Below are positions 1-17,127 of a DNA stretch of 64,000 nucleotides, one piece after another. Made by a program: the position numbers and the translations under genes. The notes beneath the pieces were generated by a model, which worked only from the letters and a program-made list of their open reading frames with translations, was not told the origin of the DNA and made no database searches. The DNA lies in NCBI GenBank assembly GCA_013791935.1, contig VMSV01000196.1, forward strand, positions 1,745-65,744, in the 5' to 3' direction. Within the stretch, counting starts at the first letter, position 1, and the number at the start of each line of letters is the position of its first letter. Origin of the DNA: Desulfobacteraceae bacterium. GTDB lineage: Bacteria; Desulfobacterota; Desulfobacteria; Desulfobacterales; UBA5616.

Positions 1-890
1 TTAAAGCCATAATATCAAAAATCGAACAGCATGGTTTCAAAATACAGGGGTACCTTGGTGCAGGTGGCTGGGGGATTGTATTTCACATGCTCCGCTCTAC
101 TGATCATGCCACGGTCGCACTTAAAATACTCAAGCCCCCATATAGCGAGGAGTGGCGCAAGCGTTTCCTTCGGGAGGTCGAAATCTTGAGCCTTCTTGCC
201 AACGATCTCAGGTTAGGGGGGCTGCTTGGAGCCCCATTTGATGTGGACGGACTGATGTGCCTTCCAATTCGATTTATCAGCGGGCGACCTCTGTCAGAGC
301 TCGCTCTCCCCATCAATACACGTGATGCCCTAGAGATCGTGTGCGATGTGCTGTCCGTCCTTGACACCTTTCACAAGAAAGGCGTCATCCATCGTGATCT
401 TCATCTTGGTAACGTAATTCTGGGTTCCGATGGGGCACTTGTCGTTGTGGATTTTGGTGTTGCTCGTCAAGAACAGGTTACAGATTACACCTACACATTT
501 AGACCCGTCGGGGCGATGTCACATTGCGCGCCGGAAAAATGGACGGATCCATCTACAGTAGGTGCACCTTCAGACGTCTTCTCTGTCGGTGTCATGTTGT
601 ATCGCCTTCTTACTTCTAAGTTCCCTTTCTGGGCTGAAAGCTACATTAGACTATATGAGCAAATCAGAAACGGCCGGTTCACTGATGTCAGCGAGGCCAA
701 TCCGAACGTTCCGCCTTTCATAAATATCGTGTTGAAGTCGTTGTTGGAACCAGACCGCCAACAAAGACCAGGGAAAGCCTCAGAGGCTCTCACTATGGTG
801 GGTCATGCCAAAGCACTAGTCGACTTGGACGAAAGACAAAGAAGGAGACGGCATTCACCCCAACAATCTGCTCGACGCGGACGCACATAA
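1..890 (+). CDS. Hanks-type Ser/Thr protein kinase, 5'-truncated by window edge; probable integron cassette ORF
   Basis: Frame is open from position 3 and contains Gly loop LGAGGWGIV upstream of the ORF-track ATG; VALK, HRDLHLGN, DFG, APE and SDVFSVG motifs; attC follows at 995. Confidence 0.9.
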   Translation, partial: KAIISKIEQHGFKIQGYLGAGGWGIVFHMLRSTDHATVALKILKPPYSEEWRKRFLREVEILSLLANDLRLGGLLGAPFDVDGLMCLPIRFISGRPLSELALPINTRDALEIVCDVLSVLDTFHKKGVIHRDLHLGNVILGSDGALVVVDFGVARQEQVTDYTYTFRPVGAMSHCAPEKWTDPSTVGAPSDVFSVGVMLYRLLTSKFPFWAESYIRLYEQIRNGRFTDVSEANPNVPPFINIVLKSLLEPDRQQRPGKASEALTMVGHAKALVDLDERQRRRRHSPQQSARRGRT

Positions 891-994
891 GGTGGGGAAA
901 GTGGGACGCTCGTAAAAAAGTAAATAATGAGGGAATAATATCTTGCACAAGGTGGCAGTGCACCATTGACAAAGGGCAGAAGTAAATAATAAAG

Positions 995-1050
995 GCCCAA
1001 CAAAGGCAATACAGCCGATCGCTGCGCTCCGGCTGATTTTTTCGTTAGCA
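995..1050 (+). mobile_element. Integron attC site
   Basis: R'' GCCCAAC (995-1001) and R' GTTAGCA (1044-1050) with internal inverted repeat CAGCCG...CGGCTG; 56 bp, between two ORFs. Confidence 0.85.
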
Positions 1051-1065
1051 TAAAATGAGGAAATA

Positions 1066-1653
1066 ATGACATTCGAAACAGCAAAAATTATAGCTGCTTT
1101 TGGTGGTTTTGGACTCGGGATACTAAATTTGGGTATTTCAATTTACAAAGAATTTATAAAGAGACCCAAGTTAGAACTGGAAATTGTAATGTCCAATGTT
1201 TTTTACGTGAATGAAGGGGAATACAATTTTCAAATAAATATTTCATTAATTTCAAAAAATGGCCCCTGTTATTTAAAGGATATTTTTATAAAGCATCCTA
1301 CAAACTGTATTGGCGGATACTCATCTTCAAATATTGTTAATTTCAATAAAGCTATCCAATATACATCAGCAGACCTTTTAGATAATTCTCAGGAAGAATT
1401 TAAAGATAATCTTTTAAAATTATTCAAAAATTCTATCTCCATGAGGGATTTAAAGATTGATGACAACTCCAGGAAATCGATGACTTTTGCTGATCGATTA
1501 ATTACAAGACGTGAAATGGACGGCTATGAAGATTTCCCTCTGAAAAATTGGATCATTGTTATTGATTACGGGGATAAAACAATAACCAAATCTTTAACTT
1601 GGAATATTCATTCTAAAAGTAAAAAAGAAGGTTGCTGGGATAATCATCTATGA
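1066..1653 (+). CDS. Hypothetical protein with N-terminal TM helix; integron gene cassette
   Basis: 195 aa ORF, GAGG RBS, AT-rich, bounded by GTTAGCA on the left and its complement TGCTA|AC (split by the intron) on the right. Confidence 0.8.
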   Translation: MTFETAKIIAAFGGFGLGILNLGISIYKEFIKRPKLELEIVMSNVFYVNEGEYNFQINISLISKNGPCYLKDIFIKHPTNCIGGYSSSNIVNFNKAIQYTSADLLDNSQEEFKDNLLKLFKNSISMRDLKIDDNSRKSMTFADRLITRREMDGYEDFPLKNWIIVIDYGDKTITKSLTWNIHSKSKKEGCWDNHL

Positions 1654-1663
1654 AATTATAAAA

Positions 1664-2429
1664 TGCTAATCGGGTAGCCGGGGGTTATTAACCCCCAGCC
1701 CCCACACCACCCGGCATTCGGGTCCGCACCGGGCGGTTCGCGAAGATACCGGGCCATAGCCGGGTAATGACCTAAAACAGTTCTTTGAAAAACTGACGGC
1801 AACTGCTTTTGATCATCAGAAGCACCTTGTCCCATGACGCGCCTGTTTAGTTGCTCCCCCGTTCGGGTTCATCGCATTTCAGAGCTCATGGGGTATGCCA
1901 CTGTTCTTCGCGTTTGGCCCTTCAGTGGGGTGAGACCTCCGCCGCCTCCGCATATGCGGGTCGCAGCTCGTTTCCGCTTGTCATTCCGCCAATAACAATG
2001 TCCGCACCTACTATGGCCTCTGCTGACTTCTGCCTGATCACCCTGCATGTTGCCATGCAAAGCGCTGTCTTTCGACCGCATGTCAGGCAGATCTCCCCGG
2101 ATAAGAACGTGAATTTCACTACACAACCGCAGCATTTACCCTATCTCCTGAATCCCGGGCTTCGTCATGTTGTGCTGACTTACCCGGAGACTGGGCCTTT
2201 TATGCTATTTCTGATCGTCGGTTCATAGTTTTGCGCTCGGGCTTCCTTCAGACCTTTCCTCGCCGAAACGCCCTTGCCGTCGGCTAATGTTTGTGTCAAT
2301 GTCTTTCGACATTGACAGGATTCACACATAGGGGACTTACACCCCATTAATTCACGCCCATGCCGGGCGTACACAATGCTTTTTCAGCGGAGCGCAAAAA
2401 ACAGCGCCCGCTGAAAAGCGGCGTTATAT
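1664..2429 (+). mobile_element. attC site split by group II intron (1664-1668 + 2373-2429)
   Basis: Removing 1669-2372 restores TGCTAAC-AATGCTTTTTCAGCGG...CCGCTGAAAAGC-GGC-GTTATAT, an attC hairpin. Confidence 0.85.
1669..2372 (-). ncRNA. Group IIC-attC intron, ORF-less (RT/maturase internally deleted)
   Basis: Minus-strand 5' end TTGT|GTACGCCCGGCATGGGCGTG; 3' end domain V GAACCGCCCGGTGCGGACCCGAATGCCGGGTGGTG and domain VI ending CCCGAT|TAGCA; only 704 nt, no RT motifs in any frame. Confidence 0.88.
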
Positions 2430-2524
2430 TTGGGAATAAAATGGGAGAATACCTGTTTATAGCTATCGTTTCAGTTTTTTTAATTGAGGCTATAGGATTT
2501 GGAACTTGGTATTAAGGAGAAATA

Positions 2525-3100
2525 ATGACTGGAACTCTTGACTCAGAGGAAAAAAGAAAACTACATTCCGAAATTAATCAGTTAGTAAATCAAAGATTTG
2601 TGTTAAATGGCGCCGCGATCACTCTTTTTGGCGTTATCACAGCTTGGGCCATCCCCAAAAATCAGTCACTACCAGACCCGAATGCTGCAAAACTGGCCTT
2701 TACCGCATCTATATTATTAATAATATTGTTATTTGCCCTTTACCTTGTTAGTCACCTTGCGAGACTTACCACACGAACACTCACAACTTATTTGATTGTA
2801 CGTGGCGAATCACAATGGGAGTGTGATTGGAAAAATTATCGTGATAAAAAGAGCTACATTGCATACACAAAAAGTCAAACGTTACTTTTCTTAGTGCTTG
2901 GCTTTTTATCCACAATTGCACCATTAATTTTCCTATCCATATTTAAAATCACTCTCAATCCAAAAGAAGCGCTTTATGCTTTAGTGCTTTTTGAGCTTTT
3001 GTACACAGTTTTTGTTGCAGGGATGGGGTTCGGCAACTGGTTTTATCCGGAGCAAGATATTGAAAACCGATGGAATGAAGTGTTGAATAATAATCGGTGA
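2525..3100 (+). CDS. Multi-pass (about 4 TM) membrane protein of unknown function
   Basis: AAGGAG RBS; charged N-terminal helix followed by four hydrophobic segments. Confidence 0.8.
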   Translation: MTGTLDSEEKRKLHSEINQLVNQRFVLNGAAITLFGVITAWAIPKNQSLPDPNAAKLAFTASILLIILLFALYLVSHLARLTTRTLTTYLIVRGESQWECDWKNYRDKKSYIAYTKSQTLLFLVLGFLSTIAPLIFLSIFKITLNPKEALYALVLFELLYTVFVAGMGFGNWFYPEQDIENRWNEVLNNNR

Positions 3101-3138
3101 CACATGATACTCATTCAAACAACTTTTAGGACTTTGAT

Positions 3139-3792
3139 ATGGATTTATTCAATAAGATTACTATCTCCAATTTAATTTGGTATATCGTTCCTGGACTGGG
3201 AATGATTTTTTTTGTTTTATTTCCAATATTAGCCTTAAACCCTCACATTGTGAAATTATTTTATGAGCAAATTGGTGAAATTGGCTTATTAATTTTAGGA
3301 ACCATTCTTGGGTTTCTATTTGAAGGTTTGCGCTTATATAGGTTCAGGCCAGGTTATTCGACAATAAAAAAGGGATTCTTTGATGAACTTACGAAAACTA
3401 TTGGAACTGATTTGAATCCTTACTTTGTCCAATCGCATGTGGATGATTTTGCTAGAACAAAAAATTATGTGGGTCTAAGCTTGCATCATGCAATTTGGAT
3501 AATGTTAGGTCAATTTACCATATTGTTTTTATTCGAGGCCCTTTTTTGGGGAATAATGGCCATATATAATTATTATTATATCACTCAATACTATTCTCTA
3601 TTCGGTTTGAATATATCAAGAATAGAATACATAACATATTGCGGAGCATTCTCGGTCACTTTTTTATCAATTGGTTTGCGGTTAATGGTGACCTCAACTC
3701 AAGATCAGAAAAATACAAATAATATGTTTTTAAATTTTGCAAAACAGTATCGACATGACCTTCAAAAATTACTTAATATGGAGGTAGATTGA
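3139..3792 (+). CDS. Multi-pass membrane protein of unknown function
   Basis: 217 aa, about 4 hydrophobic segments, YIVPG motif near N-terminus. Confidence 0.8.
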   Translation: MDLFNKITISNLIWYIVPGLGMIFFVLFPILALNPHIVKLFYEQIGEIGLLILGTILGFLFEGLRLYRFRPGYSTIKKGFFDELTKTIGTDLNPYFVQSHVDDFARTKNYVGLSLHHAIWIMLGQFTILFLFEALFWGIMAIYNYYYITQYYSLFGLNISRIEYITYCGAFSVTFLSIGLRLMVTSTQDQKNTNNMFLNFAKQYRHDLQKLLNMEVD

Positions 3793-3851
3793 TAAAATGT
3801 TTGTAGGTTATGAATAAATTATATTAACCAGATTATCATAGACTAAATATT

Positions 3852-4748
3852 ATGCCGGAAATTAAACAACATTTTTTTTATTTTGAAGGTAAAACAGCCG
3901 ATTTTTTCCCATCAGTAGGATTAAAACTATCGGGAAATTGCAGATTCAAATGCCCCTTTTGTTGTGAGCCAAATCGAACTCAACAAGTATATCCCTTGAA
4001 TAATTTTATTTCCATAGCAAACATTCTTAAAAAATTGGGCACAAGACGATTATGTTTTACGGGGGGCGACCCGCTATCACATAAAGATATAGGGGCCTTG
4101 CTGCAGTACACCAAGTCTTTAGATTTTTTTAATTTGTTATTAACAACAGATGCCAAGGCTCTAAAAGAAAAGCAAAGAGAGGTGATACCATTTGTTAGTG
4201 CCGTGCGTTTTAGTGTTCATGCAATTGGTTCAGAACATGATAATATAGTTGGCTGTCGTGGCTCTTTTAGAGCTACAGAAAAAATGATTGATGTCTTGCA
4301 CGCAGAAAAGATTCCCTGCTACGTCACAACAGTTATAACTACAAAAAATATTATGTTCGTTAAAAATATTTTAGAATGGTGCGTTAAAAATGGAATTCAA
4401 TCATATTTTATATTCGGTCTCATGCGAAGCGGTTTAGGCAATGACTTTATAAGAAAGTATGGGCAAGTTTCAGAACAAGAAATTTCAAATATTATTTCTA
4501 TACTAAGAAATAAATATTCTCCTGAAGATATCGAAATTATATATTATGACTACTATAAACAGGCTGATTGTGTATTGGTATATGGTGATGGAAAAATTAT
4601 AATTGATCCATATCCAAAGCCGCCTACTTTTCAACTAGAAATTGGAAATATTTTCTCAGATACTCGAGAAGACATTTTGAAGTTTTTTTCACACGATCCA
4701 AAGAATTACGATGGTTATGTTAATCACTTTTTGAAGCACAAGAAATAA
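3852..4748 (+). CDS. Radical SAM enzyme (no full SPASM Cys set; viperin/MoaA-like architecture)
   Basis: CRFKCPFC (CxxxCxxC), FTGGDP, FSVH, C-terminal VLVYGDG...IGNIF. Confidence 0.9.
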   Translation: MPEIKQHFFYFEGKTADFFPSVGLKLSGNCRFKCPFCCEPNRTQQVYPLNNFISIANILKKLGTRRLCFTGGDPLSHKDIGALLQYTKSLDFFNLLLTTDAKALKEKQREVIPFVSAVRFSVHAIGSEHDNIVGCRGSFRATEKMIDVLHAEKIPCYVTTVITTKNIMFVKNILEWCVKNGIQSYFIFGLMRSGLGNDFIRKYGQVSEQEISNIISILRNKYSPEDIEIIYYDYYKQADCVLVYGDGKIIIDPYPKPPTFQLEIGNIFSDTREDILKFFSHDPKNYDGYVNHFLKHKK

Positions 4749-4786
4749 GAGCTTTTTTGTATACACCTATAATACCGAATTATTTA

Positions 4787-6646
4787 TTAAGGTTTCTTTG
4801 GGCTTAAAATTATTAAATATTCCATAACATTTTTTTGGGCGGTTCCGCCATGTGATTTATGAACAAATTTCGCAGAATATGAGATAACTTCACAGCCTGT
4901 TTTCTGATAGACGCGTTCAACCACCTCACATATATCGGCTTGACCATTATCAGAGTAGCTCCAAGCGCAATGCCAACCTCTATTCAATATCTTTATAATA
5001 ATATCTATTATTGTAGCTGTGGGCCTGCTGTTAGTTTTTGTGAAGAATTCAGATCGGAACCTATCGTTAGGTTTTGGAGTCAGGCCTATACCACTACAAG
5101 AAGGATATCTATATTCCACGAGAGTCTCTAAAACGTGATAAAAACGGCTATATTCTTCTCTTTTGTAAGGAGCATCAAGGTAAACTATAACTGGCACATT
5201 ATATATCAGCGTATCTAAAGTACATAATGCACTTTCCCAAGGGCCAGGAATCGTTTCAATTTGATTTTTTGTAGAATGGCTTATTTCTGATAGATTGAGT
5301 AACCTGGCTGTAAATTCATGAGTTATTGATTGTGACCTTTTATATAAAATATCAGATATATTGTTTTCGTTTAGAGCTAAATAATTTCTTATTGGAGGTT
5401 GAGCAAAATGCCCACCATAAGTTGTCCCCAAGAAGCTTGTAGTAGTAATCAAAGCTCCTAAAGCCCACATTCTCTCTTTCTTTTCTTTTATTATGTCAAT
5501 TGCATAACGCAAACTATCAATTTCCAAACATTGTCTGAGCCCAAAAAATACATTGGCAAAATATGTTGTAAATAGACAATAAGGGTAAATTGAATTGTCT
5601 TTCCTTCTAATTTGAACCTCTGAGGTTGGGGACCAATCTTTTGTATTACTTGGTTTGCACAAAACTGGGAACTCGCGGACAAATCTTTTATAATCTTCAA
5701 GCAAAGAATCGTCTATCTCTCTACAAAAAACATCCTCTTCGTTTTCAATTTCATCGGCTAATAATGATTGTAACTCGATAAAATGTTTTTTTGCAATTGG
5801 CAAAATTCGCGATAGAAGATCTTTTGCTCCATTCCGGCTAAAACCTCCGCCATGAACTACTGACAATATTCTGCAAAACTCTTGAGCATCGGACGAGTAC
5901 GTTTTCCATATTTTATTAGTGGCACCCGAGACAATTCCAGAACCACACATTAAATCGACTACTACTCCAGACTCTGGGAGCACGGAAGCGATAGCTTCAA
6001 CAATAAAACCACATAATGCTCTTTTTGATCCCATGTAGTAGGCTGACCGGGCAAATTTGTTGATTTCGGTATTATCGATTATTTTTGCGCGATTTAACTG
6101 CGCTTTCACATACTCAATCACTTTGGGGTTAAGAGTGGCGATTGAAGCTTCTGATAAGTATTTACATTTATTTTTATTTATAAGATTATTTTCAGTCGAT
6201 ATCAGTTTATTATGTGATGATATTAAATTTTTTGTTGCTGAATAAAATAATGGATCTGTTATAGAATCTTTATTCAATAAATCTATTATCGTATGAGGGT
6301 TTATTCGGATAGTATCTTGTTCAAACAATTTCTGAGATCTAGGTTTTTCATCATTTTTATCACCACACAAAATGATTGAGTCTATCAAGGCTCTTACATC
6401 TTTCTTTAATACGAATGAGTGCTTCTCAAACTGATAGGTGGGAAGAATACCTACCTCTAATATATATTTTAGCTTTTCAGGATCGATGTCCTTTCCTAAT
6501 TCATTTTGGAGGAAGTCTCTAATGCATTTCTCATTAATAAAAAGGTCCATTTTAGGAGAATTGGCTGATTTGTTCGGCAAATCAATATCGTCTTTATAAG
6601 TATGAACATGAAAAGAAATATTTGTTTTTGTCAATTTATCTTCCAT
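4787..6646 (-). CDS. DNA adenine methyltransferase-like protein (D12/FokI-type) with about 190 aa N-terminal extension and DAPY motif
   Basis: YYMGSK, DLMCGSG (SAM binding), YLDAPY...YSRFYHVLETL. Confidence 0.8.
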   Translation of the reverse strand: MEDKLTKTNISFHVHTYKDDIDLPNKSANSPKMDLFINEKCIRDFLQNELGKDIDPEKLKYILEVGILPTYQFEKHSFVLKKDVRALIDSIILCGDKNDEKPRSQKLFEQDTIRINPHTIIDLLNKDSITDPLFYSATKNLISSHNKLISTENNLINKNKCKYLSEASIATLNPKVIEYVKAQLNRAKIIDNTEINKFARSAYYMGSKRALCGFIVEAIASVLPESGVVVDLMCGSGIVSGATNKIWKTYSSDAQEFCRILSVVHGGGFSRNGAKDLLSRILPIAKKHFIELQSLLADEIENEEDVFCREIDDSLLEDYKRFVREFPVLCKPSNTKDWSPTSEVQIRRKDNSIYPYCLFTTYFANVFFGLRQCLEIDSLRYAIDIIKEKKERMWALGALITTTSFLGTTYGGHFAQPPIRNYLALNENNISDILYKRSQSITHEFTARLLNLSEISHSTKNQIETIPGPWESALCTLDTLIYNVPVIVYLDAPYKREEYSRFYHVLETLVEYRYPSCSGIGLTPKPNDRFRSEFFTKTNSRPTATIIDIIIKILNRGWHCAWSYSDNGQADICEVVERVYQKTGCEVISYSAKFVHKSHGGTAQKNVMEYLIILSPKKP

Positions 6647-6651
6647 CTATA

Positions 6652-7593
6652 TCACAACTTATTCAATTCTTCTTTATATCTTCGTGCGTGAATAACAGTT
6701 TTCAACGCCTCAATAGCGCCATCAAGTACACCCCTTCTAGCTACGTAATCACTACATTTTTTTGCTTCTTCTGAGGCCGTTTCAACAGAGACACCAATTC
6801 CTGACCATGATAGCATTTCAGCATCGTTGTCATTATCCCCAATTCCAAGAATTTGCTCTCGTGTAAGTCCAAGGATATTGGCAACAATTTTCAAAGCCTC
6901 ACCTTTATTGCAATTTATAGGTTTTACTTCAATATAAGTACTGCCATGCGTAAATGAGATATCAGCTATCCCCTTCAAGCTCTTACTTATATCAGCCATT
7001 ACCTGCGTATTGCCCAAGGTGTGAATTACAACTGCAGATGGGCTTATTGATTTATCAATTTCAGACCATTCCAGCCATTTAACAGGCATGAAATTATATT
7101 CCTTATAAGGTTTATCAACAGATGACCACCCGATAGCGTGCTCTTCAAAATCATCTTCTCCAAACCATTTACAGCAGTATGCGATAACTTTCACTCGAAA
7201 TTTTGAAGAAATTTGAACTACCCGAATCATCGACTCATTTGATATTTTTTCTTGATGAATAGGCTTATACTTTTTTAAGATTTGACAATCTTTACCATAT
7301 TTGTACTTTTTTTTAATTATGACACTCCCGTTGTATAATATTATCGGAGTTCCATTTTTAATCGGGAGCTTCGCAATCAAATGCTCTGCTCCTGACAGTG
7401 TGCGGCCTGTCGCTATGATTATCTTAATGTTAGAATTTTTAAATTTATTGGCGAAACTTAATATTTTTTCTGGAAGTTCAGATTCATTAGATTCTAGTAA
7501 CGTCCCATCAAGATCTACGGCAATAAGCCTAATCTTCGAGAAGGGTCTATACAATTCTAAATTATCTATTGAACTAGGTAATAAATTAGCCAT
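6652..7593 (-). CDS. Cof-type HAD-IIB phosphatase
   Basis: AVDLDGTLL, IATGR, YNG, NKGEAL, GDNDNDAEML. Confidence 0.92.
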   Translation of the reverse strand: MANLLPSSIDNLELYRPFSKIRLIAVDLDGTLLESNESELPEKILSFANKFKNSNIKIIIATGRTLSGAEHLIAKLPIKNGTPIILYNGSVIIKKKYKYGKDCQILKKYKPIHQEKISNESMIRVVQISSKFRVKVIAYCCKWFGEDDFEEHAIGWSSVDKPYKEYNFMPVKWLEWSEIDKSISPSAVVIHTLGNTQVMADISKSLKGIADISFTHGSTYIEVKPINCNKGEALKIVANILGLTREQILGIGDNDNDAEMLSWSGIGVSVETASEEAKKCSDYVARRGVLDGAIEALKTVIHARRYKEELNKL

Positions 7594-8584
7594 TTTTAAC
7601 TATATATAGATGGTGCCTTGTTTTAATTGGAGATATTTTGGTTCTATATCCCTTACAATCAATGATAAAATCATTAATTTTTCCAAATGGAGAAAGGATT
7701 TCTTCAATATTTTTTGAAGGAATGATACCATTATCAGCATAATGAAAAACCAACAATTTAAACTTTGCGTTATTTAGAACATCCAATAAAGCTTGCTTTG
7801 ATTCTATCTTGTTATTAAATTTTGATTTAGTGTTAATTTTAATTGGGATGCCTGATTGACCATGCACTACAGGAGTCCCTTCTAAGGCTATTGTCTCAGG
7901 CAAATGATAATAGTGACCATATGAACGTTGATTGTAGGGGGGATCAAGATACAGAATATCAAAATCGCGTCTTTTAACAAGTTCTTCTGCGGTTTCATTA
8001 AAACAATGGCCTTTTCCGTTTAAAGAAGCAGGCATTATAAATTGGAAACGGAATTGGTTCAAAGCCTTTCGGTGCCATTTTTTTAAAAATGCATAATAAG
8101 TGCCTGCTGTATTCGCGACTTTATCTAGACTGTTTATAAGAGAGGCGAGCATTACAGCTTTTTCTTCCCCATTAATCCAGCCTTTTGCCGACCAAAATGC
8201 AATTGCCCTTCTACATGATTGAATCTTTTTTGCGTTATAATTTGTAAAATACTGTCTATTTTCAGAATATTCCCTTACAAACCAACCATTCTTTGGAGGT
8301 AGCGAGTTCATAAAGGTTTCCAAATCTGTTAGGTTATTAAGGTTCAGTTTGTTAATAATTTTCTTAAAAGATAGTGGCTTTTCATATTTTAGTCGTGCTT
8401 TTTGGAATAGAAAAGGAAATTTCAAAATATCTCCACTCCAAACATCATAACCCATCGATTTAAAATGTGATGCAACTGAGCCTAAGCCCCCAAAAGGATC
8501 GCAAAAGGAACCTATTGGTATTTGCCTTGAAACCAATTCATATATATTATTTATTGTAGATATTTTAGAACCTATATATCTCAT
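7586..8584 (-). CDS. DNA adenine methyltransferase (D12 class, FokI/NlaIII-like)
   Basis: MRYIGSK, DPFGGLGSV, VANTAGTYYAFLK, YLDPPYNQRSYGHYYHL. Confidence 0.9.
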   Translation of the reverse strand: MRYIGSKISTINNIYELVSRQIPIGSFCDPFGGLGSVASHFKSMGYDVWSGDILKFPFLFQKARLKYEKPLSFKKIINKLNLNNLTDLETFMNSLPPKNGWFVREYSENRQYFTNYNAKKIQSCRRAIAFWSAKGWINGEEKAVMLASLINSLDKVANTAGTYYAFLKKWHRKALNQFRFQFIMPASLNGKGHCFNETAEELVKRRDFDILYLDPPYNQRSYGHYYHLPETIALEGTPVVHGQSGIPIKINTKSKFNNKIESKQALLDVLNNAKFKLLVFHYADNGIIPSKNIEEILSPFGKINDFIIDCKGYRTKISPIKTRHHLYIVKNG

Positions 8585-9341
8585 TTAATTATCAATATTA
8601 TTATTATATTTAATGTTCTAAACGATGAAACAATATGCATCACATACACAAAACAACGATATTTTGGAATATTAAATCAATACAAAATTATGCAGAACCT
8701 TTGCTAATAAGTAAATGGAATTTTAGGTTACGCAATGAAAGACATTCCCTATAGAATATGAGTACCTCAAATTTTTTCTTAAGCCAATCACAATTCATTC
8801 ATTCATATTTACATGATAATTATAGCAGGGGTTTTTTATCGGCAAATTAATAAAATGGAACAATTATTTTTTATGAAGGATTACACATTGATTTGGTGTT
8901 GATAACATTATTTATTATTAACATATTGATCAATTAATTAAAAGCCTCAGCTTACTCGAATAGTTATCATATGAATTAAGAATTTATTCCTATTCTTTTT
9001 CATAATAAATATTATTTGTTTATTATGAAATAAATTTAACCCCCCCCACCTGCTGGTAATTCACAGTCATTAAAAAGAGTATGGGGTTTTGTGAAGCCCA
9101 ATCATCAACCACTTTTCCAAATAATGAATGCATATTTGAAACATCAAGCATATCAAAATTCTCAGAACAAATTTCTTTTTCTCCCATTATTTTTTCACCT
9201 TCTGATTTTTGATATTTTCAGCGCAGCTAAGCCTGACTCCGTCTATTTAGCCTTCAGAATATTCAAGTGTGTACTGGTAGGCCCTTAAACCACGTTGTTT
9301 TTTACATCGGTAAAACCTTTAAAATAAAAACTTTGTTCAGG

Positions 9342-10169
9342 TTAGGCTTTGCCATTGGAAGGGGTTTTAAAAATTTCCTCAACAACCCCTTCAAAAGATG
9401 AAACCGTGTCCGCCAACCCTATTTGAACTGCCTCTCCACCGCTAAAAAGGCCAGCCATGGTGTCATTAACCATTTTTTGATCAAGTTTCCGGTTTCTGGC
9501 CACTGCCTCCACAAGAATCTGATAGGCGTAATCAACCTGTTTCTGAATAGCCTCCCTGCCCCGATCCGATAAGGGGGCATCCGATGACCTTTCATTTACT
9601 TTTTCACCGGCATATACAGTGGTATATTTTACTCCAAATTTTTCATTGTAGCTGGATAGATCCTCATGAACCGCAATAATTCCGATAGACCCAACTATCG
9701 CAGTCCTGGAAAGAAATATTTTATCCGTTGCCGAGGCAATCAGATACCCTGCTGAAAGGGCCTTTTCGTTTGCCATGGCATAGATAGGTTTAATTTCCCT
9801 GGAGTTGTATATTTCATCTGCAAAATCGAAAACACCGGCAATGTCTCCCCCTGGTGTGTCCAGGTCAAATAGGATGGCCTTGACATCCGGGTTTTTTATA
9901 GCCGAACGAAAATCTTTCCGAAGATCCATGTAAGAGGTGCGCCAACTCCATCCGGATCTCTTATAAACCATCCCACCGTTTACAGAAATCACGGCAAGGC
10001 CGTCAGAAACCTCCAGGCAGCTTGTAGAGTCTTCAAACATGGACACGGAGGTTTCGGTATTTTGATTGTTTAATGCGACAAGGATTTCTCTTGCAGCCTC
10101 GATAGAAACCGCCAAAGGTTTTTGGATCAGGTGAAAGGGAGAAAAATGGTTTTCATTCATTTTAAACAT
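9342..10169 (-). CDS. S49 family peptidase, lambda gpC-type prohead maturation protease domain
   Basis: LAVISVNG, ILFDLDTPGG, ALSAGYLIAS, VGSIGII, VARNR, GLAD motifs. Confidence 0.88.
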   Translation of the reverse strand: MFKMNENHFSPFHLIQKPLAVSIEAAREILVALNNQNTETSVSMFEDSTSCLEVSDGLAVISVNGGMVYKRSGWSWRTSYMDLRKDFRSAIKNPDVKAILFDLDTPGGDIAGVFDFADEIYNSREIKPIYAMANEKALSAGYLIASATDKIFLSRTAIVGSIGIIAVHEDLSSYNEKFGVKYTTVYAGEKVNERSSDAPLSDRGREAIQKQVDYAYQILVEAVARNRKLDQKMVNDTMAGLFSGGEAVQIGLADTVSSFEGVVEEIFKTPSNGKA

Positions 10170-10301
10170 CAGCGTTTCCTTTTATGGATTCTTTATGAAA
10201 TCCCGGTCCGGCAAGGTGAACATGGAAGGTTTGGGGAGACACCTTGCCGGTCCATGGCCCCCGGGATTGCCATTTAACATGGAGCTTTCTCCCCAAAGCA
10301 A

Positions 10302-11051
10302 TTACCCGGTCATCACACAGGGGTCAGTTCTGCATGAAGAACATTGGGCTTTACCCGTATCTTCGATTGCAAGGCAATTCGAGAACGTGTTCAGCCCGGC
10401 CTTTTCCAGAATCCTTTGGATCTCGGTTTCCGGGTCATAATTTTCAAGGGATTTTTCAAGACCGGCTTTTTCCTTTGACAGTCTGTTCAATTTCATTTTC
10501 ATCGAAGTCCCATCTGTAGTTGATTTTCTTTCCTTTTCAACCTGCCGTTTAAAATATTCGTAATCCTGGCCCAATAGCGTTGACCGGTTTATGTTCAACT
10601 CAGGGCCTGTTTTCATAAGCCCTGTGCTGGGTGTGTAAGAGTATCTTTCGCCTTCAATTTGTTCAAAATAAACCTGACATTTAGCCGCCATAGAGAGGAA
10701 TTCGTTTAGGCTTTCTTGCTTAATTCGTGACAGATTGGTGCATTCTTGTTTGATCTCATCAGCCCGCCTTTTAAAAGTAACAGGGATAGAATCGGCCAAT
10801 TTGCCTTTTAGCTTTTTCAAATAAAGAGAGCAGGCGTCAATTTTCGACTTGGTATCGGCAAACACCCTCTTTTCCTGTTCAAGCAGTTCTCCGACCTCCT
10901 GGTTCATAAAGGCTTTTAATTGCAAATCAGTGACACGCTCATTTGCAGCGTTGTATTGCGCTCTTAAATCATTTTGAAATTGAACGACCTCAACAAAATT
11001 TTGGGCCAATTCTTCCAAGCTTGCGTTTTCTTTCGACAGTTTTGAAAACAT
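10302..11051 (-). CDS. Hypothetical coiled-coil protein with C-terminal Cys cluster
   Basis: 249 aa helical/heptad-rich ORF with AAGGA RBS, co-oriented in satellite operon. Confidence 0.7.
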   Translation of the reverse strand: MFSKLSKENASLEELAQNFVEVVQFQNDLRAQYNAANERVTDLQLKAFMNQEVGELLEQEKRVFADTKSKIDACSLYLKKLKGKLADSIPVTFKRRADEIKQECTNLSRIKQESLNEFLSMAAKCQVYFEQIEGERYSYTPSTGLMKTGPELNINRSTLLGQDYEYFKRQVEKERKSTTDGTSMKMKLNRLSKEKAGLEKSLENYDPETEIQRILEKAGLNTFSNCLAIEDTGKAQCSSCRTDPCVMTG

Positions 11052-11090
11052 TGGGATATCCTTTCTTGGTTTAAAGAGAATCAGGTATTC

Positions 11091-11309
11091 TTACATAGTA
11101 CTTTGATGCGTTTTATCTTCCCGGAAGCCTTTGGCCCTGGCTTGTGCGTTTTCAATTAAATGATTGCCCTGGCCGCTTGCCGGAAAGCCTGATTCTGACT
11201 TTTCAATTAATGTATCATTTCTTTTTTTTGCATCAGCAATCAAGGGATTGCCGGTTGATGAAATGATTCCCCGATTTTCTGGCTTGTTTGATTGTATGGT
11301 GCTTAGCAT
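11091..11309 (-). CDS. Small protein with two GNxLIxxAxxR repeats (scaffold-tail-like)
   Basis: 72 aa; GNPLIADAKKR and GNHLIENAQAR; AAGGAAAGAG upstream; start overlaps previous ORF. Confidence 0.6.
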   Translation of the reverse strand: MLSTIQSNKPENRGIISSTGNPLIADAKKRNDTLIEKSESGFPASGQGNHLIENAQARAKGFREDKTHQSTM

Positions 11310-11632
11310 GGCTCTTTCCTTTCTTTGGGTTTGGTATGGTTTTTAAAATCGACCTTAATCACTTTGTTCCCTATGGGTCGCTTGGTAAAGGCTTCCACGT
11401 GTCTGTCTATTTCCTGGACCGTATGAAACATGGGTTTGGACTGCTCAAACAGCGTCATCATGGCTTGGACCCCAAACGGACTTTTAAAGGAGTACTTGTC
11501 ATTCAGATCCAGGCTCTTTTTAACGATGTCGGTAATGTCGTTGGCCAGGTGTTTTAATTTCTTAATTTCCTCTAAATTTTCGCGTCTCATCATAAGAATG
11601 TTTTTCGTCCGTTCCCCGCAAAACCAATCCAA
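11303..11632 (-). CDS. Hypothetical protein
   Basis: 109 aa ORF directly downstream of origin; ends with phage-typical NKVIKVDF; true start may be a downstream Met. Confidence 0.55.
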   Translation of the reverse strand: MDWFCGERTKNILMMRRENLEEIKKLKHLANDITDIVKKSLDLNDKYSFKSPFGVQAMMTLFEQSKPMFHTVQEIDRHVEAFTKRPIGNKVIKVDFKNHTKPKERKEPC

Positions 11633-11686
11633 GGAGAGGAATGGTCCTGTGGTCTTTTGGTTAAAGGTTCCGACCGTTTTTTAAAT

Positions 11687-11881
11687 GGTCACCGTTTAGG
11701 TGACAATCCGGTGACTATCCAGGTGAGGGTCGACCATCAGCAAACCCGTTTCGGTTCTATCTTTGGTGACTATGGTGACTATTTTTCTAGCAAATATTAA
11801 ATATTAAAAAATAAAATATTAATAATAATAAAGTTATGTAAAAAAGCGTGTAAAAGTCACCTAAGGTCACCAAAGGTCACC
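11687..11881. repeat. Iteron replication origin of the satellite
   Basis: GGTGAC at 11699, 11710, 11765, 11774 and inverted GTCACC at 11688, 11856, 11866, 11876 (10-bp phasing) around an almost pure A/T core (about 11781-11845), immediately 3' of the helicase gene. Confidence 0.85.
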
Positions 11882-11885
11882 GGAA

Positions 11886-13559
11886 TCAGATTTCAAGTTT
11901 AAGCCCAATTCCATAATATCGATAAACACCCGAGACCCTTCTTTTCTCAAAGCGCTTGGTCATCATGGACCCAAAGGCCTTCATTTTTGGCACCCGTTTT
12001 GAAATGTTCAGTTCAAACCATTCCTCGAAGGCCTCGTATAATTCTTTTGCCCCGGCGGTCGCATCCGGGTTGATGATGCAGCAGTCATCCAGAAAATCAG
12101 CCAGCATGTCAGAATCCCTTTTGAATTCTGCGGTTGCTTCCACAACTTTAAGAGGCGGGCAAAGGCCTTGCTTTTGATACAGATGGCACCCCCGGATCAG
12201 CCAAGCCAGTATTTCGGGTGCCTCATCCTTCATTTTCTCAAACAAATGCTTATCAGCCCGCCGCTCATTGTCTGCCTGGGGCTCACGATTGACAAAGGAC
12301 ACCTCAAAACGCACTCTTAAGCACCTCTCCCAAAAAGCGAAGTCGTCCGCCGGTGCATTCGGGATATGGTTTGTGGATAGGATAAGGGTGTGGGTCGGTT
12401 CAAATTTGGTGAACATCTTATCGTGGGGAAGGCGTGCGATCACGGTATCGTCACTTGACAACCACTTGACCCTGGCCGGTGAAATCTTTTGATGAGGGTC
12501 CGTTTCCGACGCAATGGCAAGGTTAACCCGGTAAAGCATCATCAGATCCGGTGAAGGCCCGGAGGAATTTTTAAACCGTCCCTGGTCGAGAAGCATCTCG
12601 CTTGGAATGACGGTTGCCATTGGACCCAGGATGAACAGCAATATTTTGATCAGAAGGCTTTTGCCGTTTCTGCCCTGGCCTTCAAAAATGATAAATATGT
12701 GATCCTTGTTTTTTCGAAGAAGGGTCATGCCAAGCAGCCGCTGGAGGAACAAAACCATTTCCGGATCACCGTTCATGGTTTCATACAGAAACTTGAGGAA
12801 TCTCTTTGGGGTACCATACCAATCAGCCAATGGATGAGGGATGCATTGGGATTTCAGATCTTCCGGGAGACCTGGCCGGACAAGGCTTGAAACAAGGTTG
12901 TAAATATTTTTCTCGCAATGGGAAAAGCAAATTTCATTGGGCTCCGTGTCGAACTCTTCATTTAAAACGCCAAGGCCATTATAAGTGGTATGGGCGAAAA
13001 ACACACACTCGTTCCGGCCTTTGTTTGTCCGGAGCCATCTCGCCAGTTTCAGGCACCCCTTCATGGTTTTTTTCAGCCTGAATATTTTCGGGCTTTCCGG
13101 ATCAAGTTCTTTGATCTCCTTGTCAATGTCAAAGGCCTCTTCCAAGAGCCATTCCACGATGCCCTCAATAGCTGCCAGATACTGCCCTTTTTGATCAATT
13201 TGCCAGTTCGGCCCTTTGTCGTAGAACTCCCATTGACTGGTGGTTTTGTTGTGCAAAAAACATTTTCTATATCTGAACTTATAGAGTTCTGAGACGCCAA
13301 CAGCCCCGGTATCGTAGTACCCGGTATCCCGGATTAAGGCCTTTGCGCTTTCCCTTGATGGCTGGATACTTGTGGACCCAGATCCACCGTCATCCAGATC
13401 CGGTCCGGATTCTTCGGAAACCCTTAGCTTGACCACATCGGCGATCTGCCTATCGGTTTGCTGTAGAATAAAAGAATCAAGGCATGATACCGGGAAGCCC
13501 GGATCTTCGTCCGCCTCACCGTGTCCTGAGACCCTATATTCAATATTATCATCAGGCAT
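11886..13559 (-). CDS. P4/D5-family primase-associated SF3 helicase (D5_N + helicase + C-terminal wHTH)
   Basis: Walker A GQGRNGKS, Walker B IASE, STNHIP, AFWERC, LYEAFEEW, YYGIGLK. Confidence 0.9.
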   Translation of the reverse strand: MPDDNIEYRVSGHGEADEDPGFPVSCLDSFILQQTDRQIADVVKLRVSEESGPDLDDGGSGSTSIQPSRESAKALIRDTGYYDTGAVGVSELYKFRYRKCFLHNKTTSQWEFYDKGPNWQIDQKGQYLAAIEGIVEWLLEEAFDIDKEIKELDPESPKIFRLKKTMKGCLKLARWLRTNKGRNECVFFAHTTYNGLGVLNEEFDTEPNEICFSHCEKNIYNLVSSLVRPGLPEDLKSQCIPHPLADWYGTPKRFLKFLYETMNGDPEMVLFLQRLLGMTLLRKNKDHIFIIFEGQGRNGKSLLIKILLFILGPMATVIPSEMLLDQGRFKNSSGPSPDLMMLYRVNLAIASETDPHQKISPARVKWLSSDDTVIARLPHDKMFTKFEPTHTLILSTNHIPNAPADDFAFWERCLRVRFEVSFVNREPQADNERRADKHLFEKMKDEAPEILAWLIRGCHLYQKQGLCPPLKVVEATAEFKRDSDMLADFLDDCCIINPDATAGAKELYEAFEEWFELNISKRVPKMKAFGSMMTKRFEKRRVSGVYRYYGIGLKLEI

Positions 13560-13574
13560 ATGCAGGAGAGCCTT

Positions 13575-13964
13575 TTACCGGTTTACGAGGAGTTGTTCGG
13601 CTATCTTTTCCCGCCAGCGTCTCACGGTGGATGCATTGGCTTTGATCGCTTTGGCGATTTCTACATCCTTCCACCCGAGTTTAAAAAGAAGGCAGCACAA
13701 AAAAATGGCGGAAAAAGGGACCTTGTTATGTGAAAAAATAGTGTCGGTGATGGCAAAAAACTTTTCCTTGCAGACCATGCAGAAGCATTGCTGGTTTGAC
13801 CAGAACCTTTCCGGCAGCTGGCCATATTCAGCGCCACAATGTGGGCAGGCCGGAGACTTATGGATCTTCCTGATAAAATAATCCTCGCACCGCTCTTCAT
13901 TGAAAAGATTTGGCGAAATGTCATTGAATACATCATTTATGAAGTCTATTCCCATGAACATCAA
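13575..13964 (-). CDS. Zn-ribbon + HTH small protein
   Basis: CPHCG...CMVC and C-terminal HTH EIAKAIKANASTVRRW. Confidence 0.75.
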   Translation of the reverse strand: MMFMGIDFINDVFNDISPNLFNEERCEDYFIRKIHKSPACPHCGAEYGQLPERFWSNQQCFCMVCKEKFFAITDTIFSHNKVPFSAIFLCCLLFKLGWKDVEIAKAIKANASTVRRWREKIAEQLLVNR

Positions 13965-14032
13965 ATTCCTTTCATTGATTGTGATTTAACTCCCAGTTCA
14001 TTTTCCATTCCATTTCTAAATTTCAAATGTAA

Positions 14033-14085
14033 CCGAAACCCGCGCCTCTGTGACCCGTATAGAAAAAAAGTTCCGGGAAGGACCC
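14033..14085 (-). other. Lambda-type cohesive-end packaging site (cosQ + cosN-like)
   Basis: Minus strand GGGTCCT-TCCCGGAACTTTTTTTCTATACG-GGTCACAGAGG-CGCGGGTTTCGG versus lambda GGGTCCT-TTCCGGTGATCCGACAGGTTACG-GGGCGGCGACCT-CGCGGGTTTTCG. Confidence 0.75.
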
Positions 14086-14367
14086 GCAGGCCTCGGGCAT
14101 TGCCTGAGCCCGTTTGACCTTTGGCCTGTTTGGTTTTGGTGGGTGGTCCGGAGGGAGATAAAACCGGCTTTTTTTGACCAGAAAATCGATAAATAAGAAA
14201 TAAATATAGTCTGTAAAAAGTATAAAATAAAAAGATGGATAGAGATAATTTTAAATGAGTAGAGAGAGTGTTTCATTTTTCGATTCCGCTTCGGACCAAT
14301 ATATTCCGCAAATTGCCTAAATTTATCCGGATAGAAAGAAGGGTGGAATTATATTATTTGTGATTAT

Positions 14368-14613
14368 TCAACATTTGGTTCTTGAATTTAACCATCCAAC
14401 AAGATGGGTTCTCAAGACCGCTGGGGATCGCCCCACATGAAAAATCTTAGAGGCGATCGCTTCATCACGGGTTTTGCCAGTAACCATATTTCGAAAGCCA
14501 CCACGTGAATAAGGAAACCCAGGCAGTCTATCTTTATCAGCTTCTTTAAGTAAAATAGGATTAGGCCAACCATTTTCCTCTGCGATACCTTCCCAAAGTT
14601 TATTGTCTTCCAT
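14368..14613 (-). CDS. AlpA/excisionase-like small wHTH protein
   Basis: 81 aa; YSRGGFRN...IFHVGRSPAVLRTHLVGWL pattern; position typical of alpA in satellites. Confidence 0.65.
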   Translation of the reverse strand: MEDNKLWEGIAEENGWPNPILLKEADKDRLPGFPYSRGGFRNMVTGKTRDEAIASKIFHVGRSPAVLRTHLVGWLNSRTKC

Positions 14614-14688
14614 TTTTAATACCCTTTCTTAAAAAAAAATTATATTTAACTGTACGATCTGACGCAAAAATACATTGTGCATCAATAA

Positions 14689-14791
14689 TTGCAATACGTG
14701 CAAATGGCTTATTTTTGCAAACCCAAGAGTTGCAAATTAATAGGTTTGCAATCCAAAGGATTGCAAATTTGGATAGTTGGTTCTTATGCAG
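14689..14791. promoter_or_regulatory. Array of TTGCAA palindromes, putative operator of alpA-like operon
   Basis: TTGCAA at 14689, 14715, 14730, 14746, 14761 plus variants at 14698 and 14786; 15-16 bp periodicity. Confidence 0.6.
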
Positions 14792-14852
14792 AAAAATAAG
14801 GGGCGGATTAAATCAATTCACTTTAGGTGACAAAAGAATGATCATTTGAAGA

Positions 14853-15761
14853 CTAAAGCAAACCTTCTTCTTGAAGGTCTCTTCTTATAGTTGCGGTGGT
14901 TACTATCATTTCACTAACCATTTTTTTTAAGCTATTTATTTCTTCTGTTGTAGCGGCACTCTGAAGCAATTTCATTAATGCATCAATTTCTTTCTTTTTA
15001 ATCCCAGGTTTCAACAAAGCCGACTCAACTATCCTATATTTCAAAACTGCACCAATAAGTCGATCTCTAACCATTGCAGATTTATTTAAACGCACATCCT
15101 CGAACTGTTTCTCATGAAATGCGCTTGCCACTAATGTCTTTCTTTCACGTTTACGAGTCGAAATTATTTTTATGCCTTTTTTACTTTTGTCGGAATTCGG
15201 ACCTTTTATCGAGCCCGAAAGTATGGTTTCGCTTAAGGCTTTATGAATAATTCTTTCTGTTGGTAAACTCAGTAGGAATAACGAGGTAAAGTTTATTTTG
15301 TCCAAATTACTTTCAAGCCATACATAGAAAAATATTAAGACTTCCAAATGAACAAAAAACAGATCTTCGTCATCAGGTGGGAAGTAATATGGGCTAAGCA
15401 TATCTTCAAAAAAATCTGTTATCAAATAATAATCAGGTTCGTGAAAAAAATCATACTTAAAATTGCTTACTTTAATAAGGCTTTGGTCTTTTTCGGGAAA
15501 TCTAGGTCTTATGCCAAAATCCTTTTTCCCCCTAAGCTCTTTATATAACTTATCAAGTGTCTCGTGATAATATTTATTTTCACTTTTAGACGCAACAAGA
15601 GCCTTACGGGATATATGGTACCGAAAGGCCAACTTTCTGAGGAAAAAAGATTGTTGAGAAATTACTTGAAAAATTAATATGTTATCTATTCGATTCTCCG
15701 ACGCTATCAATTGACTGATAAAGTATTTGTCTAATTTATCATTTTCTGTTTTCTCATTCAT
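14853..15761 (-). CDS. Hypothetical protein with C-terminal HTH (putative element regulator)
   Basis: 302 aa; C-terminal VTTATIRRDL resembles a DeoR-type recognition helix; sits between int and alpA-like gene. Confidence 0.65.
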   Translation of the reverse strand: MNEKTENDKLDKYFISQLIASENRIDNILIFQVISQQSFFLRKLAFRYHISRKALVASKSENKYYHETLDKLYKELRGKKDFGIRPRFPEKDQSLIKVSNFKYDFFHEPDYYLITDFFEDMLSPYYFPPDDEDLFFVHLEVLIFFYVWLESNLDKINFTSLFLLSLPTERIIHKALSETILSGSIKGPNSDKSKKGIKIISTRKRERKTLVASAFHEKQFEDVRLNKSAMVRDRLIGAVLKYRIVESALLKPGIKKKEIDALMKLLQSAATTEEINSLKKMVSEMIVTTATIRRDLQEEGLL

Positions 15762-15849
15762 GCCTTCTGCAATTCCTTCTTAGATGACCCGGCAATGCTT
15801 GCAAGGGTAGTAAACTCTTCGATTCATCAACCTATGCCGGGTCAGATAA

Positions 15850-17097: not shown

Positions 17098-17127
17098 TTA
17101 TTCCCCCGGTATTTTGCCAATTTTAAA

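Follow-up and report, generated by a model that had tools for sequence, protein, structure and literature searches.

At positions 2525 to 8584 of a 64,000-nucleotide stretch of DNA from a Desulfobacteraceae bacterium (GenBank assembly GCA_013791935.1, contig VMSV01000196.1, positions 1,745 to 65,744; the whole stretch is called the window) lies an AT-rich cassette in which two genes for membrane proteins and one for a radical S-adenosylmethionine (SAM) enzyme face an operon of two DNA methyltransferases with a phosphatase gene between them. A previous sequence-only reading had described the cassette as a convergent six-gene module, and the six open reading frames (ORFs), their motifs and their spacing are all confirmed. 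The genes, and the non-coding stretch that borders them, are the following.

2525-3100, plus strand: TM1, 191 aa, four predicted transmembrane (TM) segments (hydropathy script)
3139-3792, plus strand: TM2, a 217-aa membrane protein with three to four TM segments (hydropathy script)
3852-4748, plus strand: rSAM, a radical SAM enzyme of viperin-like predicted fold, 298 aa, PF04055
4787-6646, minus strand: MT619, a D12-class N6-adenine DNA methyltransferase, 619 aa, PF02086, PADLOC MTase_II
6652-7593, minus strand: HAD, a Cof-type HAD-IIB phosphatase, 313 aa, PF08282 and TIGR01484
7586-8584, minus strand: MT332, a D12-class N6-adenine DNA methyltransferase, 332 aa, PF02086, the first gene of the methyltransferase (MTase)-HAD-MTase operon
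8585-9341, no strand: non-coding AT-rich stretch upstream of MT332, 757 bp, GC about 0.25, without a long ORF

The HAD and MT332 genes overlap by 8 nt (7586-7593) and the gap between MT619 and HAD is 5 nt (6647-6651); HAD is probably translationally coupled to both methylase genes. The convergent stops of rSAM and MT619 are separated by 38 bp (4749-4786), and no significant hairpin is found in this gap (z -0.38). TM1 also ends 38 bp upstream of TM2 and is as AT-rich as the rest of the cassette. In 500-bp windows, the GC content is 0.30-0.38 over 2501-8500 and 0.25 at 8501-9000, compared with 0.45-0.50 in most of the flanking windows, where 1001-1500 is the one AT-rich exception at 0.32. The AT-rich block noted earlier is confirmed.

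We collected related loci from two anchors. A profile scan of 185,579 species genomes with rSAM returned six loci, all in Desulfobacterota-type metagenome-assembled genomes (MAGs), and the gene content around them was determined by tblastn. A scan of metagenome contigs with MT619 returned 67 loci, which gives 73 related loci (cited by L numbers; L013 duplicates L005). TM2 lies directly upstream of rSAM in all six genome loci, and precedes it in every metagenome locus of the window-type variant where the region is on the contig. MT332, HAD and MT619 adjoin this pair in five of the six genome loci, and in ten of the 67 MT619-anchored loci TM2, rSAM or both lie next to the methylase genes (L010-L016, L018, L023 and L064). 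When the window and the unique loci of its lineage are counted together, TM2-rSAM and MTase-HAD-MTase are adjacent in 15 of 16, which bears out the earlier view that the two operons belong together.

These 15 loci show three gene orders. Nine have the convergent arrangement (the window, L005, L008, L010-L012, L014, L023 and L064), five carry TM2-rSAM-MT332-HAD-MT619 on one strand (L006, L007, L015, L016 and L018), and a single locus, L004, has the order MT332-HAD-MT619-TM2-rSAM. No foreign gene stands between TM2-rSAM and MTase-HAD-MTase in any of the 15, and in the one-strand order the gap between rSAM and MT332 is only 1-39 nt, as in an operon. Of the 13 loci in which the junction can be seen, 6 encode HAD and MT619 as a single fused protein (913-945 aa). 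The linkage is kept down to about 40% identity of MT619 and rSAM, through rearrangements and fusions, and such retention is evidence of selection for the linkage and not of repeated independent assembly.

The sixth gene does not belong to this unit. TM1 is present in none of the six genome loci and in none of the 73 related loci overall; therefore, the conserved unit comprises five genes, and this part of the six-gene description does not stand. Apart from its own entry, TM1 has only three homologous clusters among 5.8 billion proteins (42-46% identity), and it belongs to no Pfam or NCBIfam family. A paralogous relation to TM2 is ruled out by hhalign (probability 0.3%). TM1 is probably an accessory or unrelated cargo gene.

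Regarding the individual proteins, rSAM matches PF04055 at 5.9e-14 and carries the cluster motif C30xxxC34xxC37, whose three cysteines are invariant in 28 of 28 aligned family members; C38, C68 and C240 are further invariant cysteines. The SAM-binding motif is T70-G71-G72-D73-P74, in which T70, G71, G72 and P74 are invariant. It thus reads GGD and not GGE, the form used for viperins in one preprint (bioRxiv 10.1101/2023.09.13.557418); the substitution is conservative. The family is small, with 65 clusters in the 5.8 billion proteins and at most 59% identity. An AlphaFold2 model of rSAM (pLDDT 93.0, pTM 0.90) fits a partial (βα)6 barrel closed by a C-terminal extension. The ten best chains of a VIA search with this model are all viperins or viperin-like proteins, with Z scores of 25.2-27.4 and root-mean-square deviations (RMSDs) of 2.1-2.4 Å. 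The top match is mouse viperin with CTP (6q2p_B; Z 27.4, RMSD 2.3 Å, 266 of 298 residues, over 8-298), and SkfB (Z 24.5), SuiB (23.7), BlsE (23.0) and MoaA (20.3) follow below the viperins. In its predicted fold, rSAM is viperin-like over the full length, and the earlier comparison with viperin-type enzymes holds at this level.

By sequence, rSAM lies outside the viperin family. Its TIGR04278 score is 27.3 against a cut-off of 450, and the pVip models of PADLOC match residues 25-168 only, at 6e-12. PADLOC had been expected to recognize nothing except the methylases; both methylases were indeed matched (PADLOC v2.0.0), and the weak partial pVip matches on rSAM came in addition. No precursor-peptide ORF fits in the gaps of at most 100 bp around TM2 and rSAM, and the enzyme is without RRE and SPASM parts; these features argue against a peptide maturase, unless TM2 itself is the substrate.

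The partner TM2 is conserved in its polar positions. The motifs GLRLYRFRPxY, HHAIWIM and (E/Q)DQxxTNxMF recur, and the alignment contains 26 invariant columns, including R65, Y67, R70, Y73, H117, R181, Q190 and N194. Such conservation points to ligand binding or catalysis more than to a plain pore. TM2 has no Pfam, NCBIfam or PADLOC family, an Atlas search returned unnamed clusters only, and its structure matches stay below a TM score of 0.5. Longer fused forms of TM2 were not found, which is weak evidence.

The phosphatase HAD matches PF08282 at 6e-43 and TIGR01484 at 93.3 bits (cut-off 41.8), and it carries the DLDGT and GDNDND motifs. Its score of 120.6 with the narrower Cof subfamily model TIGR00099 is under the cut-off of 137. 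D27, D29, G30, T62, G63, R64, K230, G252, D253, N256 and D257 are invariant in 24 of 24 aligned sequences, so that catalytic motifs I-IV are all intact.

Both methylases carry the D12-class motifs. MT332 matches PF02086 at 3.4e-24 and the PADLOC model MTase_II PDLC03287 at 5e-64 (positions 1-317 of the 646-position model), with DPFGGLG as motif I and DPPY as motif IV; D29, F31, G32, G33, D214, P215, P216 and Y217 are invariant in 27 of 27 sequences. MT619 matches PF02086 at 1.3e-08, with the invariant motif I DLMCGSG and with DAPY as motif IV. The latter had been called atypical, but among six aligned family members three have DAPY and three DPPY, so it is a normal variant, and judged by its motifs MT619 is probably an active enzyme. 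A sequence search of solved structures gave nothing useful for MT619 or MT332. A second D12-type methylase gene is found on another contig of the genome of the window (G000:C104:79582-80481; 421-aa frame), and its product is 31% identical to MT619 residues 201-519.

The methylase core of MT619 spans approximately residues 200-619 and is preceded by a family-specific N-terminal domain. The first 215 residues are modelled with an intermediate pLDDT of 76; the model has no Foldseek match at E ≤ 0.001, and a wide VIA search gave nothing at Z ≥ 8, the best value being 5.7. Residues 34-110 repeatedly match winged helices of the MerR/Xis type at Z 4.3-5.5, among them CvkR (5.5), the GIsul2 excisionase (5.4), Pukovnik Xis (5.1) and BmrR (4.9). 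These matches give a weak but consistent hint of a DNA-binding, MerR/excisionase-like winged helix at about residues 34-94 of the predicted model. The earlier statement that the module has no nuclease stands: Pfam, NCBIfam and PADLOC find no nuclease domain in any of the six ORFs, and structure searches find no nuclease fold in MT619 residues 1-215, the only unassigned soluble region, where a novel fold is still possible.

A profile of the MT619 N-terminal domain matches only 108 representative clusters among 1.84 billion. Labelled by BLAST, 83 of them are stand-alone MT619, nine are fused to a class I SAM methylase, four are HAD~MT619 fusions and one is a HAD fragment, and the remaining 11 (mostly short fragments) are unlabelled. 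The constant core of the family is a D12 methylase, a Cof-type HAD phosphatase and a D12 methylase with a winged helix-turn-helix (wHTH). Since HAD, or in variant B (described below) a SAM methylase, is often fused to MT619, the core probably works as a complex.

The module that accompanies the core is exchangeable. In 30 of the 67 metagenome loci, termed variant B, the gene order is MT332, HAD, X1 (812-911 aa where complete), X2 (243-314 aa) and MT619; these loci have neither TM2 nor rSAM, and no other membrane protein either. X2 belongs to the class I SAM methylases. X1 was studied in 19 proteins (L022:5782-8337, L030:6483-9218 and those of 17 further loci), all 19 of which have an intact GGDEF domain (PF00990); four also match the Cas10 palm model. 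Its C-terminal 330 or so residues are thymidylate-synthase-like by hhalign (86.9%, E 4e-6, 267 columns against ten PF00303 proteins), and PLGL stands in place of the catalytic-cysteine motif PPCL. Searches with Pfam and with a sequence profile against solved structures detect only the GGDEF part, and an Atlas search gave no further information. The thymidylate-synthase-like domain may be a nucleotide-sensing domain coupled to the cyclase. As a separate observation on this enzyme family, thymidylate synthase was matched in only 17 of 41 genomes sampled from the phylum of the window, and the matches were short divergent proteins (223-340 aa, 32-45 bits); this suggests that most of the phylum uses another route to dTMP.

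Other partners occur as well. In L040 (1534-4726), the genes directly after MT619 encode another rSAM, unrelated to that of the window, a deoxynucleoside kinase and a protein of 515 aa that has two TM helices at its C-terminus. This rSAM has the GGE motif and MoaA-like C-terminal cysteines and is matched by the PADLOC pVip models at 6e-17, and the locus falls in another clade of the MT619 tree than the TM2-rSAM loci. In L056-L058, genes for an NTP-transferase, a uracil phosphoribosyltransferase and a guanylate-kinase~dCTP-deaminase-like fusion lie directly upstream of MT332. We do not claim the fusion of L057 as a known defensive dCTP deaminase, and no PADLOC model matches it. L009, in which TM2-rSAM stands without the core, is flanked by genes for a deoxynucleoside kinase, a dCMP deaminase, a dCTP deaminase, a serine recombinase and a DUF3987 protein. 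Neither module is seen in 27 metagenome loci; in 22 of these the contig breaks off no more than 401 bp upstream of MT619, so that they are uninformative. Where the flanks are visible, the exchangeable second module consists of nucleotide enzymes, mostly of pyrimidine metabolism. In summary, the cassette is a rare, modular and conserved family.

The neighbourhood of the cassette in the window is that of a small mobile island, with the following features.

1-890 of the window: Ser/Thr protein kinase, PD-T4-6-like; the full ORF is G000:C44:1333-2634, 433 aa
1066-1653, plus strand: ORFan, 195 aa, GC 0.32, no match in Pfam, PADLOC or PHROGs
1980-2269, minus strand: group II intron fragment, Rfam D1D4-3 at 125.9 bits and D1D4-1 at 53.7 bits
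9342-10169: head maturation protease, phrog_53 at 3e-77, PF01343
11886-13559: D5-type DNA primase, phrog_1156 at 4e-67
15850-17097: tyrosine integrase, phrog_1 at 1e-52
17483-17567: tRNA-Leu(CAA), after the integrase

Integrase, D5-type primase and head maturation protease make the earlier term satellite core a reasonable description. Between 9342 and 17567 the island also encodes ORFs of 249, 109 and 302 aa of unknown function. The integrase faces the 5' side of the tRNA gene, which is unusual for a tRNA-integrated island, and att-type direct repeats were not found within 1-18500. The stretch at 8585-9341 is presumed to hold the promoter or regulatory elements of the methylase operon and to form the border towards the protease gene. 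Promoter and terminator scans gave sites no commoner than in shuffled sequence (32 versus 31.8 and 6 versus 4.4). The same stretch contains many inverted repeats and a C8 homopolymer at 9040-9047, and could be regulatory or phase-variable.

To the left of the cassette, the integron cassettes proposed from the sequence find no support; a kinase, an ORFan and an intron fragment occupy the region. A search of 850-2560 gave neither repeats nor inverted structures of the attC type, although neither an integron-specific finder nor an attC model was used, and no integron integrase was found, the sole integrase seen being the phage-type gene at 15850-17097. The kinase ORF begins 411 bp ahead of the window start; against the PD-T4-6 defence models the kinase scores 4e-46, with an alignment over 8-277 of 292 model positions. 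L007 carries a comparable kinase (2.9e-55 with PD-T4-6) 1.7 kb upstream of TM2. Two of 16 loci have such a kinase near the cassette, perhaps by chance or through a loose association. The ORFan may be a further cargo gene of the island. The segment at 1980-2269 is probably a truncated group II intron between the kinase and the cassette, and no reverse-transcriptase ORF is found nearby.

A full-length MT619 homologue is found in none of 40 related genomes searched (five of the same family, 35 of the same order), and the GC content of the cassette is about 0.33 compared with 0.45-0.50 in most of the flanks. The cassette is therefore accessory, horizontally acquired cargo of the integrase/primase/head-protease island. 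The DNA of the window occurs in eight listed sequencing runs, all labelled groundwater metagenome. Elsewhere in the family, the variant-B locus L095 comes from an IMG/VR contig that also encodes a major head protein (a prophage head gene), and L008 has a second pVip-like gene near the cassette. In L006 (a Geobacter MAG), the five-gene cassette is followed directly downstream by Tn7-like TnsB, TnsC and TniQ genes (L006:14652-19592) and may in that genome be cargo of a transposon.

Gene content, conservation, fusions, module swapping, a viperin-like predicted fold, intact motifs and mobile or defence contexts are what these comparisons show. On this basis, we favour, at a probability of roughly 45%, the reading that the cassette is one nuclease-free, methylation-linked defence system acting on pyrimidine nucleotides, most likely directed against phages or mobile elements. 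We infer the defence role from context, and likewise the substrates, the sequence of steps and the part played by TM2. In the proposed mechanism, the two methylases would place N6-methyladenine (m6A) on the two strands of an asymmetric site and so mark self DNA, and the methylase/wHTH complex would recognize unmarked DNA. HAD and rSAM would act on the nucleotide pool, most likely on cytidine or other pyrimidine nucleotides, by depleting or poisoning it. Here, rSAM could convert a nucleoside triphosphate (NTP) into an analogue like those of viperins (3'-deoxy-3',4'-didehydro-NTP, ddhNTP), and HAD could dephosphorylate nucleotides, either for depletion or in processing the rSAM analogue. TM2 at the membrane would serve as an anchor, gate or exporter. 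The fusion of HAD or X2 to MT619 in relatives points to physical coupling of these activities. The earlier proposal of a single SAM- and nucleotide-based system is partly supported: it keeps its linkage, its nucleotide-enzyme neighbours and its mobile/defence contexts, but TM1 falls outside the unit, and the nucleotide signal that rSAM and HAD would make for TM effectors is hypothetical.

Several observations weigh against this reading. First, the evolutionary independence of the 15 linked loci is limited. In a quick maximum-likelihood tree of 50 MT619 sequences, one clade (SH-aLRT 98) holds all TM2-rSAM loci and is itself nested within loci of a different architecture; the clade comprises 13 window-type rows, L023 with both genes, and L017 and L019, whose upstream side is cut off. 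A single clade means that the association arose once and was then retained, and not that it was acquired many times. The modules can also stand alone, TM2-rSAM in L009 and the core with another module in 30 loci. Second, the family assignments of the enzymes are distant or general. rSAM reaches 30.9 bits with the curated viperin model NF038283 (viperin_w_prok), whose cut-off is 180, and scores higher with the PqqE, AhbD and MoaA models than with the viperin model. The closest solved relatives of HAD by sequence are generic YidA-type sugar phosphatases, the MT619 core (204-617) shares 22-30% identity with ordinary adenine methylases of plasmids and phages, and TM2 has no recognizable ligand-binding domain. 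It is not obvious how the chemistry of adenine methylases would connect with that of pyrimidine enzymes. Lastly, the version of PADLOC used dates from 2023 and predates newer named systems.

We compared the cassette with the known systems that it most resembles. With viperin and pVip it shares a radical SAM enzyme of about 300 aa, the CxxxCxxC motif and the predicted full-length architecture of partial barrel and C-terminal extension; a nucleoside or nucleotide kinase beside relatives of the cassette (L009 and L040) and mobile or defence contexts are further common points. However, rSAM is only 13-16% identical to viperins, has GGD and the three extra invariant cysteines (C38, C68 and C240), is always paired with a separate TM protein and is joined to a methylase-HAD-methylase operon. 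Like type II/IIS restriction-modification systems, the cassette has two intact D12-class m6A methylases with large recognition regions, but it is without a detected endonuclease, carries HAD between the methylases and often fused to one of them, and has the family-specific N-terminal domain found in only 108 clusters.

Discrimination by methylation without an obvious nuclease, as proposed for the cassette, is known from BREX/Pgl, which combines a methylase with a phosphatase-type enzyme. The cassette likewise has this combination and no obvious nuclease, whereas no PglX, PglZ, BrxC/PglY or BrxL match is found among its six proteins with PADLOC v2.0.0, its phosphatase is of the HAD and not the alkaline-phosphatase family, and it has no ATPase. 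CBASS, Pycsar and Panoptes resemble the cassette in that a nucleotide-acting enzyme adjoins a small multi-pass membrane protein. In contrast to these systems, neither Pfam nor PADLOC detects a CD-NTase, cyclase or mCpol in the window; the sole PycTM match, on TM1 at E 0.098, is not significant. Compared with CBASS and Pycsar, TM2 also has no recognizable nucleotide-binding domain, and a GGDEF cyclase occurs only in variant B, outside the window.

Two systems from recent preprints were compared as well. In PUA-Calcineurin-CE-HAD, as in the cassette, a HAD phosphatase is tied to N6-adenine methylation and nucleotide pools. There, HAD is described as the dNTP-depleting effector, converting dATP to dADP with m6-dAMP as the trigger; the same preprint notes that N6-adenine methylases are linked to modified-base synthesis operons without restriction enzymes (bioRxiv 10.64898/2026.01.15.699771). 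In contrast, the cassette ORFs match no PUA or calcineurin-like family in Pfam at E ≤ 0.1, and their HAD is of the Cof-type IIB class and is fused to a methylase in relatives. Ophion, a defence system of rSAM, PHP and phosphoribosyltransferase proteins with proposed nucleic-acid or nucleotide chemistry (bioRxiv 10.1101/2025.09.30.679545), is likewise a multi-gene system containing a radical SAM enzyme. It differs in its partners, a PHP phosphoesterase and a phosphoribosyltransferase, and it has no methylases, HAD or membrane protein. We found no description of the present gene combination in the literature, although the supplementary neighbourhood tables of candidate-system papers might contain one. 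The cassette may work as a hybrid of epigenetic discrimination and nucleotide attack of the viperin or depletion type.

Other readings of the same genes were weighed against the preferred one, that of a single defence system. The cassette could be a DNA-modification module of the mobile element itself, for anti-restriction or epigenetics, in which the nucleotide enzymes supply or remodel precursors and immunity plays no part. Its constant location on mobile or accessory DNA (the satellite-like island, the Tn7-like element, the prophage-like L095 and the recombinase/DUF3987 element) and its two intact sequence-specific methylases without a nuclease are in keeping with this idea, as are the partners dCTP deaminase, dCMP deaminase, deoxynucleoside kinase and thymidylate-synthase-like domain, which we take to resemble the base-hypermodification toolkits of phages. 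However, 2.9 million viral contigs contain no rSAM locus and only one MT619 locus, and 50,697 phage records contain no full-length match. In addition, pyrimidine precursors are of no use to adenine methylases, a DNA polymerase and a DNA-level transferase for modified pyrimidines are both missing, and DNA modification offers no role for the conserved membrane protein that is tightly coupled to rSAM. We consider this alternative unlikely.

The single clade that contains all loci with both modules, and the occurrence of each module without the other (L009 and the 30 variant-B loci), could also mean that two independent systems travel together: the viperin-like rSAM with its membrane protein, and an orphan methylase pair with HAD. 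Defence genes tend to cluster. Chance company of this kind accounts poorly for a linkage that persists to about 40% identity and through three rearrangements without a gene inserted between the modules, or for the five loci in which rSAM and MT332 are 1-39 nt apart on one strand. Moreover, where flanks are visible the core always stands beside some nucleotide-enzyme module, and in L040, which belongs to a different clade, an unrelated set of rSAM, kinase and TM protein directly follows MT619. Two separate systems therefore seem quite unlikely to us.

A third reading takes the cassette for a producer of a nucleoside antimetabolite, in which rSAM would make a modified nucleotide, HAD would strip its phosphates, TM2 would export it and the methylases would serve self-protection or regulation. 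The viperin-like predicted fold of rSAM, the intact HAD with a capped architecture of the small-molecule type, and a conserved polytopic membrane protein with invariant Arg, Tyr and His residues would suit such a pathway. TM2, however, has only three to four helices and no transporter-family match, variant B has no membrane protein of any kind, and the contexts are those of mobile elements and defence and not of biosynthetic clusters. Furthermore, we know of no D12 methylases that act as resistance determinants for nucleoside antibiotics. This makes the antimetabolite reading improbable.

Lastly, a type IIS-like restriction-modification system with an endonuclease hidden in the MT619 N-terminus, TM1 or TM2 would suit the two D12 methylases, pairs of which usually accompany an asymmetric-site endonuclease, and one distant plasmid homologue of the MT619 core (H2) that adjoins a BglII/BstYI-family endonuclease, but it is very improbable, since no ORF matches a nuclease family in Pfam, NCBIfam or PADLOC, the MT619 N-terminal domain best matches small DNA-binding winged helices (Z ≤ 5.7), TM1 and TM2 are membrane proteins, and the same core is likewise without a nuclease in the other variants.

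The reading as one defence system has a bolder form, that of a new class of immune system without a nuclease, in which the methylase-HAD-methylase core writes the self mark, senses unmarked DNA and is wired to interchangeable pyrimidine-nucleotide weapons: the viperin-like rSAM with its membrane protein, the GGDEF~dead-thymidylate-synthase-like sensor, and the kinase~dCTP-deaminase-like fusions. This form is possible but rather doubtful.

If the cassette is a single defence system, it would join epigenetic self-marking with attack on the nucleotide pool, two strategies hitherto studied separately, and would do so without a nuclease. The family also offers new biochemical targets, namely a viperin-like enzyme outside the viperin family, a fusion of HAD with a DNA methylase, the membrane protein TM2, and a GGDEF-fused thymidylate-synthase-like domain without the catalytic cysteine. 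Its constant core with swappable modules is a guide to further nucleotide-based effectors. If the bolder form is true, rSAM would be the first relative of viperin in prokaryotes to rely on a membrane partner from a separate gene; this would echo the membrane anchoring of eukaryotic viperin and extend the link between viperin and the membrane to bacteria.

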